Shown here: one piece after another, positions 10,623 through 19,796 of the stretch | Layout: every line of letters starts with the position of its first letter | Position numbering within the stretch: the stretch's first letter is position 1 | From: a virus | Taxonomy: Duplodnaviria > Heunggongvirae > Uroviricota > Caudoviricetes | Length of the DNA: 23,374 bases | Virus record (IMG/VR): IMGVR_UViG_3300032156_000002 | Location: 73,023 to 96,396 of that record | Reading direction: 5' to 3' (one strand) | Notes under the pieces: model-generated | Database searches by the model: none | What the model was told of the DNA's origin: nothing | The model's input: the letters and a program-made list of their open reading frames with translations, nothing else | Position numbers and translations under genes: made by a program

Positions 10623-11576
10623 ATGACCTATCCGCGTCAGGAGTTTCTCAACTTCCAGCCGGACGAGACGGACAGGTGGAGTGCGGTCGAGCCGGTCCTG
10701 CGGTTCGACGACCTCGCGCCGCGCGACGACAGCCTGCCCATAACGCTCTCCGTTATGATTGCGGCGAACGACTACCGCAAGGCACAGATACTTCGCACCC
10801 TTGAGTGCTTGGCCCGCCAGAAGTTCCGAGACATCGAAGTTCTTGTGGCGCAGATTGGCGGCAATCAGGACCTCGGGGAGGCGTGCGCGAGATTCTTGCC
10901 GTACCTGCGAGTGCGCTTTTTCAAACTCGAACGCGAGGGTTTCGCCGCCGACCCGAGCCGCGGCTTCCGGGCGATGATACCCGAGGCGCAAGGCGACTAC
11001 ATCGCGGCCATGCAGGCCGAGATTATGCTGACCGAGGAGGCGTGCGGTGTGCTGGTACGCTCGATGCGCGACCCGATGCTGGGGTCCACTTTCCATAGTT
11101 GCCTTGACGCTTCGCCGCTTGAGGACTGGTTGAGCAAAGAGAAATTCATCGTCCTGCGCATCGGCTTCCTCGATGGACAATGCCAACAGGCGCTCGACCA
11201 GACGGACTGGCACAGTCACGTCCGAGAAATCGAGCAGATATACTCCTACAACCGGCACGGAGAAGGATTGTCAAACCGCGGCAACACCTTCTGGCGGCCC
11301 GCTATCCATTTCCCGTGGTGGTTCGTCGGTTGCGCGAAGCGCGAAGCGGGCATCTGGAAAGATATGCCCGAGATGCTTGGGCACGCGATGATTGACTTCT
11401 ACTTGATGAACTACCGCATCTCCTACGGCTACGTGGACATTCTGCCGCCGGGGTTGTACGGCTACCATCAGTACCACTTTCGCACGGCTGTCGGCATGAA
11501 GGACGAGGAGCCGACCATGCGCCTTGCGTTACAGGAAAGGGCGCGAAGGGAGAGGGGAGGCGAGCAGGTCGAATGA
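10623..11576 (+). CDS. GT-A fold (GT2-like) glycosyltransferase with an atypical metal-binding motif
   Basis: LSVMIAANDYRKAQILRTLECLARQKFRDIEVLV is a GT2 N-terminus. GDYIAAMQAEIML occupies the position where DxD is expected. Confidence 0.65.
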   Translation: MTYPRQEFLNFQPDETDRWSAVEPVLRFDDLAPRDDSLPITLSVMIAANDYRKAQILRTLECLARQKFRDIEVLVAQIGGNQDLGEACARFLPYLRVRFFKLEREGFAADPSRGFRAMIPEAQGDYIAAMQAEIMLTEEACGVLVRSMRDPMLGSTFHSCLDASPLEDWLSKEKFIVLRIGFLDGQCQQALDQTDWHSHVREIEQIYSYNRHGEGLSNRGNTFWRPAIHFPWWFVGCAKREAGIWKDMPEMLGHAMIDFYLMNYRISYGYVDILPPGLYGYHQYHFRTAVGMKDEEPTMRLALQERARRERGGEQVE

Positions 11577-12409
11577 GGATTGCCATTGCTGGTTTCCGGG
11601 GGAGGCTTGGGTCGTGGCTGTTCGAATCTGGCGGACCCGACATCTTTGCGCTGGACGTGGACTGTGCGGACCCGCATGCGGTTGGTGAGTGCATCCAAGA
11701 GTCCAAGCCCGATGTGATTATCAATTGCGTTTCGTGGACCAAGGTGAACGAGGCGGAGGACCCGGCCAACCGGGAGGCCGTGATTCGCGCGAACGTTCGT
11801 GCACCCGGCGTCCTGCGGCGCGCCTTCGGCGGCTACCTCATCCAACTCTCCTCGGGTTTCGTGTTCCCCGGCACGCCCCTGCCGCGCGTCATCGAGTACA
11901 ACGAGAACGCCAAGACCAACCCCGTCAACTTCTACGGATTTTCAAAACTGGGGGGCGAGGCGGCGGCCCGGCTAGGCAATGGGCCGACACTGGCGGTCCG
12001 AACGCTCGACCTGTTCGGGCCGGTGGCCATTCCCGGCAAAGAGGATTTCGTGCAGGGCGTGGTGCGCATCCTGCGGTCCGGTCAACCATTTCCCACGCGC
12101 CCGTTCTACATGCGCCAGCCGACGTACATCCCTGAACTTGCGCGGGTATTGCTCGGCATTGCCAGATGTCAGAATCCAATCACGGGGATTCTTCACCTTG
12201 CCGGGTGGCCCGCCACGGATGCGCGCCACTGGGCCGAGGCCGTGGCCGATGCCTATGGTCTGCCCAAGGATGGCATCTGCGGAGGTTATGAGCCGAAGGT
12301 GCCCCGCCCGTTCGGCGCGGTCCTGAACGTCAGCAAGGCGAAGCACCTCGGAATCAATATGATGTTCCCGACGGACGCTCTCAATATCATGGCGCGAGGT
12401 CAACAGTGA
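11573..12409 (+). CDS. rmlD: RmlD-like NDP-4-keto-6-deoxyhexose reductase (extended SDR)
   Basis: Motifs MRIAIAGFRGRLG, IINCVSWTKVNEAE, LIQLSSGFVF, PVNFYGFSKLGGE (YxxxK) and QPTYIPELA. ATGA overlap with the upstream gene. Confidence 0.8.
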   Translation: MRIAIAGFRGRLGSWLFESGGPDIFALDVDCADPHAVGECIQESKPDVIINCVSWTKVNEAEDPANREAVIRANVRAPGVLRRAFGGYLIQLSSGFVFPGTPLPRVIEYNENAKTNPVNFYGFSKLGGEAAARLGNGPTLAVRTLDLFGPVAIPGKEDFVQGVVRILRSGQPFPTRPFYMRQPTYIPELARVLLGIARCQNPITGILHLAGWPATDARHWAEAVADAYGLPKDGICGGYEPKVPRPFGAVLNVSKAKHLGINMMFPTDALNIMARGQQ

Positions 12410-13110
12410 AGTTCAGTGTCGTGCTCCTTACCTTCAACAGCCCCAGCCGCTTCGAGAAGCGCATGGACGAACTGGCCTACTGGACGGCTAACCGCGACGC
12501 GGAGATTGTGCCCGTGCTCAACGGACCCGTGGACCGCGAGTACAGCCTTTTGCTTGCGCTGGCCATCTCGCGGAGCGCACACGAGCCGGGCGCGCCCTTC
12601 ATCCGACCCATCGCCATTCCGATAAACCACGGCTTCGCCGGAGGCATGAACATCGGCGCGCGCTCGACCGCGGGCGAGATTATCATTCTCCTCAGCGATG
12701 ATGTGCGCATTGCCGGTGACTTCCTTACCCCAATCGAGGCGACCCTGAGGCGCGGCTCGCTGTCCATCGTCTCCAAGACCATTGTCAACTTTCCGGGCGG
12801 ATGGAATCAGTTTGGCGATGTTGTTGTGGCCTACCCGGACGGGTCACTGGTGGCCATGCGCAAGTCAATATGGCAGGCACTCGGCGGTTTCGACGAGCAA
12901 TTCACACCCGCGGGTTTCGAGGACGTGGACCTCGGGTATCGGGCCGCGCAACTCGGCTTCCCGCTGGTTGCACTTCCCAACCTGCCGGTGGACCATAGCG
13001 CGCCGGGCCAGTCTGCGCCCTACAACAAAGAACGGTTCGACCGATGTGTTCGGATGAAGGCGTTGTTCGCCGCGAAGTACGGATTAGAGAACGTGCCTGC
13101 GGTTCCGTAG
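12406..13110 (+). CDS. GT2 family glycosyltransferase
   Basis: Motifs KFSVVLLTFN, NHGFAGGMNIGA, IIILLSDDV, GGFDEQFTPAGFEDVDLGYRA. GTGA overlap. Confidence 0.85.
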   Translation: MKFSVVLLTFNSPSRFEKRMDELAYWTANRDAEIVPVLNGPVDREYSLLLALAISRSAHEPGAPFIRPIAIPINHGFAGGMNIGARSTAGEIIILLSDDVRIAGDFLTPIEATLRRGSLSIVSKTIVNFPGGWNQFGDVVVAYPDGSLVAMRKSIWQALGGFDEQFTPAGFEDVDLGYRAAQLGFPLVALPNLPVDHSAPGQSAPYNKERFDRCVRMKALFAAKYGLENVPAVP

Positions 13111-18158: not shown

Positions 18159-18628
18159 TTATCATTCTGCGGGACAGGATGGCGGATTCAATCGGGGTCG
18201 AGCGGGCGCGCGAGTTGCTCGCACTCCCGGCGACGGTGGTGGTTTTTATGCGTCCCGAGTGGGGCGGCGTGCATATGATGGAGTTGCAGGGCTGGGACGA
18301 CCCCATTCAGGTCAAGATGGTTGGGGGCGAAGCCGAGCAGACATTTGTGGCCATCGAGATGCTACGCACCGAGCACGGTGACGACACGATGGTTCTCATT
18401 TCCGCGTTGCCCGAGGATTCGATGGCCGCCGTGCTGGCAGACATTCACTTTGCTGGGTCTCTTGAGGAGGCCGAGACAAGTTTCATCGAGGAGGCGTACT
18501 ATGCGCGAAAGCGACCTGAACAGGGACCAACTCCTAATCGCGGAACTCGTAATGCGCCACTGGTCAAAGGTGGACTGGAAGCCGGGGGCGCGAATTCCGC
18601 CGAGCGGGAAGGTCCTGACACGACTTGA
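18155..18628 (+). CDS. Hypothetical protein (157 aa; the last 128 nt overlap rfbH)
   Basis: GTGA overlap with the upstream stop and a GGAGG RBS just before it. No family recognised. Confidence 0.5.
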   Translation: MIIILRDRMADSIGVERARELLALPATVVVFMRPEWGGVHMMELQGWDDPIQVKMVGGEAEQTFVAIEMLRTEHGDDTMVLISALPEDSMAAVLADIHFAGSLEEAETSFIEEAYYARKRPEQGPTPNRGTRNAPLVKGGLEAGGANSAEREGPDTT

Positions 18629-19796
18629 CGCCTTCTGCCTAGCCGGGGCGATGCTGGACGGCAATCTTGCCGGAGGCAAGTACATGCGCGCGTTCGAACG
18701 CGCGCTCGGCCGGTACATCGGCAAGCGGAGATGCCTTATGGTCAACTCGGGGTCGAGTGCCAACTTCCTCGCGCTGGCTACACTGAACGCCCTGCGGCCA
18801 TTCAAGCGGGGCGACGAAATCATCACGACCGCCTGCGGATTTCCAACCACGGTCGCGCCCATCGTCCAGTTGGGAGCGACGCCGGTGTTCATTGACATAG
18901 AGTTGGGCACCTATGTTCCGACCGCCGACGCGGTACTCAACGCAGTGAGTAAAAATACTCAGTGTATTATCCTCGCCCATACGCTGGGTAATCCGTGGCC
19001 GGTGAAAGAAGTGTCCGACCGACTGGTTGGCACGAATGTTGTTATTGTCGAGGACAACTGCGACGCCCTTGGCTCGCTTCACGGCGGCCAGAAAACCGGC
19101 TGGTACGGGGAGTTTGCGACGCAGAGTTTCTACCCGGCCCACCACATCACGACTGGCGAGGGCGGCGCGCTTCTGATGGACAAGCCGAGTCTCGCCAAGA
19201 CGGCCCGCAGTCTGCGTGACTGGGGACGCGACTGTTGGTGCGAGCCGGGCGACAACGATACGTGCGGCAAGCGTTTCGCGACTCCGTTCCCAAACCTACC
19301 CGATGGTTTCGACCACAAATATGTCTATTCTCACCTCGGGTACAATTTGAAGGCGACAGACCTACAGGCGTCGGTGGGTCTCTCGCAGATGGAGATGGTA
19401 GATGCGTTTGGCCGGAAACGGCGCGCCAACTTCAGGCGGTTGTTCGATATATTGGCTGACGGCTTGGCCGACAGCGAGTACGCCATCCTGCCATATGCCT
19501 CCAAGGACAGCGACCCGAGTTGGTTTGGATTTCCAATCACCCTTGGCCGGGCCGCGCGCCCGCGAGCGAGAGTGATTGAGGACCTACAGCGGGCTGGGAT
19601 TGACACGCGGATGCTGTTTGCCGGTGACATCAGGGCGCAACCGGCAATGCGCGACGTGCCTTACTTGGGACACGCCGGACTGCACAACACGGTCCGCGTC
19701 CTGCGCGACACGTTTTGGGTCGGGGTCTGGCCGGGCATCTGCCCCGAGGCCATCCAGTACATGGGCGAGCAGATTATCAAGGCAGTGCGTCCGTGA
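18501..19796 (+). CDS. rfbH: CDP-4-keto-6-deoxy-D-glucose 3-dehydratase E1 (RfbH/DdhC), a PMP- and [2Fe-2S]-dependent enzyme
   Basis: Motifs VNSGSSAN, IVEDNCDALGS, SFYPAHHITTGEGG (His in place of the aminotransferase Lys), RDWGRDCWCEPGDNDTCGKRF (Cys cluster) and DHKYVYSHLGYNLK. GAGGAGG RBS before ATG 18501. Confidence 0.9.
   Translation: MRESDLNRDQLLIAELVMRHWSKVDWKPGARIPPSGKVLTRLDAFCLAGAMLDGNLAGGKYMRAFERALGRYIGKRRCLMVNSGSSANFLALATLNALRPFKRGDEIITTACGFPTTVAPIVQLGATPVFIDIELGTYVPTADAVLNAVSKNTQCIILAHTLGNPWPVKEVSDRLVGTNVVIVEDNCDALGSLHGGQKTGWYGEFATQSFYPAHHITTGEGGALLMDKPSLAKTARSLRDWGRDCWCEPGDNDTCGKRFATPFPNLPDGFDHKYVYSHLGYNLKATDLQASVGLSQMEMVDAFGRKRRANFRRLFDILADGLADSEYAILPYASKDSDPSWFGFPITLGRAARPRARVIEDLQRAGIDTRMLFAGDIRAQPAMRDVPYLGHAGLHNTVRVLRDTFWVGVWPGICPEAIQYMGEQIIKAVRP

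Follow-up and report, generated by a model that had tools for sequence, protein, structure and literature searches.

A glycan island beside the capsid gene of a tailed sediment phage with a putative CDP-3,6-dideoxyhexose pathway

The DNA analysed here (the window) comprises the last 23,374 bases of the 96,396-base IMG/VR viral contig IMGVR_UViG_3300032156_000002 and carries an island of glycan genes just downstream of a capsid gene. From the first gene of this overlapping operon, a GT2-like glycosyltransferase (GT) gene at 10623, to the end of the contig, neighbouring genes either share 4 bp or leave gaps of less than 25 bp. The island encodes five pathway enzymes, six to seven GTs, an S-adenosylmethionine (SAM)-dependent methyltransferase, a pyruvyl transferase, a protein with a MobA fold and two orphans. 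A sequence-only reading had named RfbF, RfbG, RfbH (E1), an RmlC-like epimerase and an RmlD-like reductase between 11573 and 19796 and had proposed that the phage makes its own L-configured 3,6-dideoxy sugar. All five genes are indeed intact open reading frames (ORFs) on the + strand within this span; it also contains two GTs, a methyltransferase and three unknown genes that had gone unmentioned. The attribution to a phage was confirmed by a terminase large subunit gene (phrog_38, 3.6e-82), a portal protein gene and an SU10-type capsid gene on the same contig. We regard it as fairly probable that the window shows the late-operon glycan island of a tailed phage of roughly 100-120 kb from sediment.

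The clearest member of the pathway is E1/RfbH (18501..19796, + strand, 431 aa), the pyridoxamine 5'-phosphate (PMP)- and [2Fe-2S]-dependent CDP-4-keto-6-deoxyglucose 3-dehydrase. It scores 500.7 bits against NF011936, above the curated equivalog cutoff of 423, and matches the E1 structure of Yersinia pseudotuberculosis (3BCX) over nearly its full length with E=5.8e-116. Among structures in the PDB it reaches 391 bits with E1 as against about 140 bits with ColD entries. The assignment as a clear RfbH/E1 is thus borne out, and so are the two features on which it had been founded. The His that replaces the usual Lys is present (H214): the phage protein reads ypaHH like the wild type, whereas the H220K mutant (3BB8) reads ypaKH, and this His was found in all 110 E1 homologues compared (82 viral and 28 cellular). 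The Cys cluster is present as well, the equivalents of Yersinia C193, C251, C253 and C261 being kept as C187, C245, C247 and C255. This corresponds to the motif C193-x57-C251-x-C253-x7-C261, which we take to be the [2Fe-2S] ligand set of Agnihotri et al. (2004). Yersinia C192 and C257 are not kept, as determined by counting along gap-free alignment blocks. The four cluster Cys are near-invariant in the same 110 homologues and positions 192 and 257 vary freely, as would be expected if the four are real cluster ligands.

For E1 the ATG at 18501 is the best start; it lies 7 nt after a GAGGAGG Shine-Dalgarno sequence, and the N-terminal sequence is also conserved in L088, a relative with 82% identity. 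Public gene calls shorten the protein by choosing internal Met starts, to 370 aa in the window (18684) and to 355 aa in L088 (L088:10001). The starts backed by a Shine-Dalgarno sequence (18501 in the window, 9773 in L088) give the full-length 431 aa in both.

Upstream of E1, a shortened RfbF-like glucose-1-phosphate cytidylyltransferase is encoded at 15151..15855 (+). TIGR02623 matches it in two stretches with 170 bits (E=5e-50), compared with 27 bits for the rmlA model, and the nearest structure is the CTP-type enzyme of Salmonella (1TZF, 137 bits; the next family follows at 63 bits). The motif G-G-x-G-T-R-L and the downstream motifs are kept. The protein misses the curated TIGR02623 cutoff of 300 bits because about 25-35 residues are missing, and this deletion is common to the phage versions only, not to canonical RfbF or to that of the cellular module described below. 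The name RfbF therefore holds in that the protein is closest to CTP-specific enzymes, but it denotes a shortened, phage-specific form that stays below the curated cutoff.

The stop codon of this gene overlaps (ATGA) with the start of an NDP-glucose 4,6-dehydratase gene (15852..16910, +). The enzyme is RmlB-like, with 187 bits to the dTDP model versus 147 bits to the CDP model TIGR02622 (cutoff 278), both below cutoff, and with 130 bits to RmlB structures versus 82-84 bits to those of CDP enzymes. Its catalytic motif is STDKVFG, accompanied by YDASK (YxxxK). The (S/T)DK pair is shared by the window dehydratase and 78 homologues; the canonical RfbG of L008 (463 bits to TIGR02622) has TTDKCYD, and RmlB has TDE (stdevyg in 6BI4). 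The Asp-Lys pair is presumably a feature of CDP enzymes, an assignment for which we lean on the S. typhi and Yersinia structures. Of the earlier designation as RfbG, the CDP-type Asp-Lys pair stands, whereas the protein as a whole is RmlB-like and falls outside the canonical RfbG family.

The next gene (16891..17391, +) encodes a short cupin of the RmlC superfamily, of the 3EJK/Agl13/SpsL type. In Pfam it remains below threshold (RmlC PF00908 17.5 versus 27 bits; FdtA 20.3 versus 23). A profile built from six phage cupins found the uncharacterised structure 3EJK with 1.7e-30, and RmlC and QdtA with only about 1e-6. An AlphaFold model (pLDDT 85) superimposes with TM scores of 0.78 on Agl13, 0.76 on SpsL and 0.71-0.77 on RmlCs. 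In the alignment to 2B9U the general-base His of RmlC is kept (His63 equivalent; KGWHxH), the Lys73 position is unconserved and His120 and Tyr133 are replaced by Asn. The protein is a probable C5 (3,5) epimerase, and in cells its gene neighbours those of RfbF and the dehydratase. The description as an RmlC-like epimerase is hence right as to an epimerase-fold cupin, but this is no canonical RmlC, and three of the four catalytic residues are gone.

The putative NAD(P)H-dependent 4-ketoreductase lies apart from this block at 11573..12409 (+). It is a divergent RmlD-like protein with 116 bits to PF04321 (cutoff 27), 100.6 bits to TIGR01214 (below the equivalog cutoff of 224) and 1e-15 to 3SC6. 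Both GxxGxxG and YxxxK are present, so that an RmlD-like reductase is supported at the family level by the PF04321 score and the short-chain dehydrogenase/reductase (SDR) motifs.

The sequence-only reading had recommended a search of viral databases for rfbH; 84 matching IMG/VR stretches were found, and most of the small contigs among them carry E1 alone. L088 shares the island, and gp10-like head-tail connector genes come next there. The cassette follows a capsid gene in ten or more phage contigs, complete genomes with direct terminal repeats (DTR) among them; capsid homologues lie upstream of it in L010, L036, L051, L174, L177 and L178. Distant phages of 64-112 kb, some of them complete with terminal repeats, share a core located directly downstream of the capsid gene, in the order RmlD-like, GT2, GT1_2, a 140-aa orphan (unk140), methyltransferase, GT4, GT4. 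Seven distant phages (counting L172, in which the methyltransferase was undetected) have a block of RfbF, dehydratase, cupin and E1 inserted after the methyltransferase and before the GT4 genes. In others this block stands elsewhere, and in two phages E1 alone is inserted into the core. In the window and at least six relatives the cupin gene is placed between dehydratase and E1 in one operon. Contamination or a prophage-edge artefact was considered and rejected, as the island of L088 has structural genes on its flanks and is also present in complete DTR genomes.

Several further arrangements were seen among the viral records. The L088 island has HNH/AP2 homing-endonuclease insertions (4847-5341 and 15294-15821), which the window lacks. 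In G040 (IMGVR_UViG_3300003541_000003, a complete genome of 67 kb) all five pathway genes occur, but scattered: E1 lies at about 4-5 kb, the trio RfbF-dehydratase-cupin precedes the capsid gene at 38-40 kb, and the RmlD-like gene belongs to the GT core that follows the capsid gene. About 40 of 50 E1-carrying viral records (contigs of 40-65 kb; L012-L033, L037-L050 and others) have the His and Cys ligands intact and no RfbF-like gene. Most of these E1-alone records also lack a strong dehydratase match, and they make up several large clades in the E1 tree. Such phages would have to draw on CDP-4-keto-6-deoxyglucose of the host. The cyanophages S-H68, S-B05 and S-B43 also carry RfbH-like genes, that of S-H68 being annotated as CDP-4-dehydro-6-deoxy-D-glucose 3-dehydratase. 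These are phage-borne E1 homologues too, but they have 34% identity and belong to other phage lineages.

A counterpart of the five genes exists in cells. Bacterial and archaeal species genomes were scanned with the cupin profile, which found more than 500 relatives; the best 80 loci were kept with flanks of 10 kb. Among these 80, 67 have an RfbF-like gene, 74 a dehydratase (about 34 of these with at least 165 bits to the window enzyme) and 28 an E1 that scores more than 300 bits. Genomes of Omnitrophota, Elusimicrobiota, Bacillota, Planctomycetota, Chloroflexota and archaea repeatedly show the gene order RfbF-dehydratase-cupin-RmlD-E1. An RmlD gene lies adjacent or is fused in 19 of the 28 E1 loci, compared with 7 of the 52 that have no strong E1. 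Pfam confirmed RmlD::E1 fusions of about 755 aa, an RmlD_sub_bind domain followed by an E1 domain, at L098:10424-12682 and L123:10426-12696; further fusions were noticed in L106 and L113, and the carriers are Omnitrophota and Chloroflexia, with the fused gene inside the RfbF-dehydratase-cupin operon. The orphan PDB entry 3EJK is a member of the cupin family of this module. From the recurrent cellular operon we conclude that the cupin and the RmlB-like dehydratase belong to CDP pathways and that a functional link exists between the RmlD-type reductase and E1. The placing of an epimerase-fold cupin and an RmlD-type reductase in an E1 pathway, which the sequence-only reading had put forward, is upheld by this operon and by the fusions.

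The cellular module has the same five families as the island, the same (S/T)DK lineage of dehydratases and the same cupin subfamily, and it likewise has no adjacent E3. It differs in that the phage reductase stands at the head of the island and is far more divergent, that the phage RfbF has its deletion and that the phage block is embedded among GTs beside the capsid gene. In a quick tree, seven of nine cassette-type E1s cluster together (SH-aLRT 93), separate from the E1s of the cellular modules. It is likely that the cellular module is the evolutionary source of the phage genes. A characterised product of the module was not found in the literature.

The reading had included DdhD (E3), if in brackets, in the gene set DdhA/B/C(+D). 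This part did not hold. In the incomplete 96-kb contig no gene for E3 (DdhD/AscD/RfbI) was detected: a search for PF00175 (NAD_binding_1) gave no hit, and PF00111 (Fer2) gave a single sub-threshold one of 12.5 bits on the opposite strand. The PF00175 search found an E3-type reductase in none of the 50 other E1-carrying viral records either, 22 of which are at least 90% complete. Nor was E3 found near the cellular modules (80 cellular loci, searched by a regular expression combining a plant-type ferredoxin motif, RxY[ST] and GxGxxP that had no positive control, with the PF00175 search as backup). Two PF00175 hits that seemed possibly to lie inside L098 or L162 were discarded, as they are on other contigs. 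In two of twelve cellular carrier genomes a NAD_binding_1 gene is absent altogether. Because E3 is missing from the surroundings of the cellular five-gene modules as well, independence of E3 belongs to the module as such and does not amount to a defect of the phage. The E1 homologue SpnQ runs with general ferredoxin or flavodoxin reductases, and since no E3 is encoded here, ferredoxin or flavodoxin of the host would be the electron source of the phage E1.

In the chemistry known from Yersinia and Salmonella, CDP-glucose is converted to CDP-4-keto-6-deoxyglucose, which then undergoes E1-dependent deoxygenation at C3. In the pathway proposed here, the shortened RfbF would form CDP-glucose from glucose 1-phosphate (Glc-1-P) and CTP, the Asp-Lys dehydratase would convert it to CDP-4-keto-6-deoxy-D-glucose, and E1 would strip the C3 hydroxyl with electrons from a ferredoxin/flavodoxin system of the host. 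The short cupin would then invert C5; because C3 is already deoxygenated at this stage, an RmlC-fold enzyme can invert C5 only. Finally the RmlD-like enzyme would reduce C4 to yield a CDP-3,6-dideoxy-L-hexose, most simply ascarylose. Stereochemically, an RmlD-type reduction that sets the C4 hydroxyl as in L-rhamnose should give 3,6-dideoxy-L-arabino-hexose, i.e. ascarylose, and the opposite reduction should give the L-lyxo isomer. The six to seven soluble GTs, the methyltransferase and the pyruvyl transferase would assemble and decorate a glycan in the cytoplasm, with virion proteins such as the capsid protein as its most likely carriers. That the GTs are soluble, that the island belongs to a late operon and that it keeps its place next to the capsid gene all point to cytoplasmic glycosylation of virion proteins, and to judge from the genes this is the likeliest use of the island. 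We consider a self-contained five-gene CDP-dideoxyhexose pathway that feeds a virion glycan to be the best explanation of the locus, and a reasonably probable one.

Several points weigh against this explanation. The phage encodes no electron donor for E1. The loss of Lys73, His120 and Tyr133, together with the scores below the Pfam thresholds, makes the epimerase activity of the cupin and its regiochemistry uncertain. The phage RmlD-like protein reaches 116 bits as against 212-232 bits for the reductases of the cellular modules, and direct comparisons between them give 24-61 bits. Two relatives, L177 and L051, combine E1 with an RmlD-like gene but show no cupin in the flank, so that an L-sugar cannot be general to the lineage. 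Lipid-linked intermediates of the host, too, can be substrates of soluble GTs. The contig has no terminal repeats, is about 79% complete (CheckV) and stops inside the island. Nucleotide specificity and product are moreover deduced from sequence. Hence, of the proposed phage-made L-3,6-dideoxy sugar, an E1-dependent route of the phage's own from Glc-1-P is encoded, whereas the L-configuration of the sugar and its use as a terminal cap are conjectural.

The same enzymes could give another product. The cupin and the RmlD-like enzyme would then act mainly on CDP-4-keto-6-deoxyglucose and form a CDP-6-deoxy-L-hexose (6-deoxy-L-altrose or of the CDP-rhamnose type), and the E1 product would be reduced unepimerised to a sugar of the D-series (paratose or abequose type), or both would be made. 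The 52 of 80 cellular cupin loci that have RfbF and dehydratase and no strong E1 would mean, on this argument, that the cupin acts on the 6-deoxy intermediate in many organisms; L177 and L051, which pair E1 with RmlD-like genes in the absence of a cupin, fit it too, and Y. pseudotuberculosis makes L-altrose via ddhA/ddhB and altA/altB (PMC5399914). However, many of the seemingly E1-less loci are short contigs, the position of the cupin between dehydratase and E1 is maintained in the phage operons, and RmlD tracks E1 and not the cupin alone, as the proportions given above and the fusions with E1 show. We therefore regard this alternative as unlikely, though worth keeping in view. A different question is whether the glycan is destined for the virion at all. 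It could serve to remodel the host envelope (lipopolysaccharide (LPS), capsule or S-layer), for example to block superinfection, or it could be attached to phage DNA. In viromes rfbH and its kin are usually interpreted as auxiliary genes of the LPS type (PMC11295528, PMC10653327); a transmembrane helix is dispensable for peripheral GTs, and flippases of the host could serve. Hypermodification of DNA by phage GTs has a precedent as well (Pyle et al. 2024, as cited in PMC12619734). Against this, genes for a flippase, polymerase, ligase or polyprenyl-phosphate transferase are missing from the island, and a Kyte-Doolittle scan of its proteins found no transmembrane segment, the sole hit being a Rossmann strand of the dehydratase. 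The cassette is in addition fixed by the capsid gene inside the structural module of divergent phages, which fits late co-expression with virion proteins. Export to the host envelope was rejected for want of a transmembrane segment in the island proteins, and DNA hypermodification because no thymidylate-synthase-like hydroxymethylase (PF00303) was found in the genome; taken together, a destination other than the virion seems quite improbable.

It could also be argued that E1 is inactive or repurposed for want of E3, so that only CDP-6-deoxy sugars are made or E1 acts on another nucleotide sugar, e.g. GDP-4-keto-6-deoxymannose. The complete lack of E3-type reductases in the genome of the window and in the 50 other E1-carrying viral records is what speaks for it. 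Yet the His and the four Fe-S Cys are strongly conserved in the 82 viral copies, and such strict conservation of ligands argues for an active, reductive E1. The cellular five-gene modules are equally without a nearby E3, the example of SpnQ shows that general reductases can suffice, and the E1 gene sits in the RfbF operon. An idle E1 is hence very hard to credit. Returning to the self-contained pathway with a virion glycan, its most far-reaching form would be that large sediment phages coat their capsid with a methylated, pyruvylated glycan that includes an entirely phage-made 3,6-dideoxy-L-hexose, with E1 working without E3 on ferredoxin or flavodoxin of the host or on an unrecognised phage partner such as an orphan Cys3-His protein. 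We offer this only tentatively.

The remaining genes of the island, all on the + strand, mostly concern the assembly and decoration of sugars. The first GT (10623..11576, GT2-like) scores 24.6 bits against PF00535 (cutoff 23.3) and has 4-bp overlaps with its neighbours. It is followed after the reductase gene by a family 2 GT (12406..13110; PF00535 37.3 bits, PF13641 34 bits) and a Glyco_trans_1_2 GT (13120..14052; PF13524 61.4 bits), whose gene is always followed by unk140 in related phages. The class I SAM-dependent methyltransferase (14393..15154; PF13489 46 bits, PF08241 44.5 bits) has an uncertain start: the call in a relative points to about 14468, and the L088 homologue has 228 aa. Downstream of E1 lie a GT4 (19821..20864; PF13439 and PF00534), which is conserved in the cassette, a GT4/GT1 protein (20861..22114, start at 20861; PF00534 42.7 bits) and a polysaccharide pyruvyl transferase (22123..22992; PF04230 26.8 bits, cutoff 25.3), whose L088 homologue is annotated as PS_pyruv_trans. 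A partial GT2 gene (22899..23374), weakly supported by PF00535 (17.8 bits) and with an uncertain start, runs off the end of the contig; in L088 a 279-aa GT2 follows the pyruvyl transferase, in agreement with this placement. A scan for promoters and terminators gave counts not above those in shuffled sequence.

The orphan unk140 (14049..14471, 140 aa) is characterised by an invariant Cys-x-Cys...Cys...His pattern. Invariant in the alignment are C80, C82, C108, H123 and H57, and the Cys3-His set is, to judge from this conservation, a probable metal site. Its AlphaFold2 model has a pLDDT of 77; a fold search with it found no match in the PDB, only uncharacterised matches in AFDB and nothing in Atlas. 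The family is confined to these phage cassettes (the window and L170-L178), where it always lies between the GT1_2 gene and the methyltransferase gene. The idea that unk140 substitutes for E3 was rejected as very improbable: it has no solved fold and stays at its place between these two genes even where E1 is about 45 kb away. A complex prediction for E1 and unk140 gave a score of 0.00, i. e. no answer, and counts neither way.

Two more genes separate the cupin from E1. The 256-aa product of 17388..18158 has a MobA-like nucleotidyltransferase or GT-A fold (PF12804 21 bits, below cutoff); Atlas relates it at 0.96 to viral NTP_transf_3 clusters (TM 0.75), and its family is mostly viral. The second is a small conserved ORF of about 115 aa without Cys (18155..18628), which has no Pfam match and occurs only in L088 (236 bits) and L089 (192 bits). 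It lies between the MobA-fold gene and E1, and its reading frame, which differs from that of E1, extends 128 nt into the E1 gene. This overlap may be real or a by-product of the high GC content.

The GC content is about 62%, and all credible genes are on the + strand. The major capsid protein gene of the SU10_MCP type occupies 8259..9440 (+; Atlas features 0.98, 198/256 shared), and the ten best Atlas matches of its product all belong to SU10_MCP/Phage_capsid families. The capsid C-termini of the window (9380-9440) and of the L051, L036 and L010 homologues share a conserved Thr-rich motif, ...FTG(R/T)IxTTCPxIG, which is a candidate acceptor site for the glycan by analogy with C-terminal glycosylation in mycobacteriophages. 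The gene between capsid gene and island (9933-10619) has a product rich in Lys, Ala and Pro in which a stretch of about 40 residues is duplicated (VVGxAYLLRENM...AVAEGF occurs twice); it may be a scaffold or decoration protein. Near-identical DNA is present in two sediment metagenome runs, one of which is possibly the source; in the phage collection, megablast found no counterpart of the whole window. No terminase of a known phage shares more than 38% identity with the one encoded here, and thus no host can be assigned.

The island shares with the ddhDABC (rfbIFGH) and ascE/ascF genes of Yersinia and Salmonella the succession of cytidylyltransferase, 4,6-dehydratase and PMP/[2Fe-2S]-dependent E1, followed by epimerase and 4-reductase. 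It differs from them in lacking DdhD/AscD (E3), in a dehydratase and a cytidylyltransferase that stay below equivalog level and belong to other lineages, in a short 3EJK-type cupin as the epimerase, in having no Wzx or O-antigen context and in being phage-borne. Deoxygenation at C3 without a dedicated E3 partner gene is a feature it has in common with SpnQ (forosamine) and ColD (colitose). However, ColD has no Fe-S cluster and uses a GDP-sugar, whereas the phage E1 keeps the cluster ligands and sits with a cytidylyltransferase, and the substrate of SpnQ is a dTDP-2,6-dideoxy sugar.

Glycosylation of mycobacteriophage virions was reportedly described by Freeman and colleagues in 2023. In Che8, Corndog and Myrna, according to PMC12363180 and PMC12619734, phage-encoded GTs decorate capsid and tail-tube subunits. 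The island resembles these systems in the linkage of phage GTs to structural genes (here six to seven GTs directly after the capsid gene, a position found in at least ten contigs), but it has in addition a complete CDP-dideoxyhexose pathway and a pyruvyl transferase, and it is known from its genes alone. In mycobacteriophage systems, too, methyltransferases accompany the GTs. To our knowledge, those mycobacteriophages have been described by their transferases and not by a full de novo pathway for a nucleotide sugar. Viral E1 homologues as such are already known from cyanophage records, from surveys of auxiliary metabolic genes and from IMG/VR. Our literature search, however, found no description of a complete phage CDP-3,6-dideoxyhexose pathway in a capsid-adjacent glycosylation island, nor of the consistent lack of E3 in such an island or of its parent five-gene module in cells.

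The module is widespread in bacteria and archaea, including the RmlD::E1 fusions and the 3EJK family, and its product can now be determined. Because E3 is consistently missing from the phage and the cellular versions alike, the question of the natural reductant of E1 has become directly testable. 3,6-Dideoxyhexoses are rare and strongly antigenic sugars, found mainly in enterobacterial O-antigens and nematode ascarosides. A full pathway for such a sugar beside the capsid gene would carry virion glycosylation well past the mycobacteriophage cases, as the phage would produce its own exotic donor sugar rather than borrow from the pools of its host. If the capsid is indeed coated with a glycan containing such a phage-made sugar, this phage lineage would provide the first case of a dideoxyhexose on a virus particle, together with a naturally occurring E1 system that is independent of E3.

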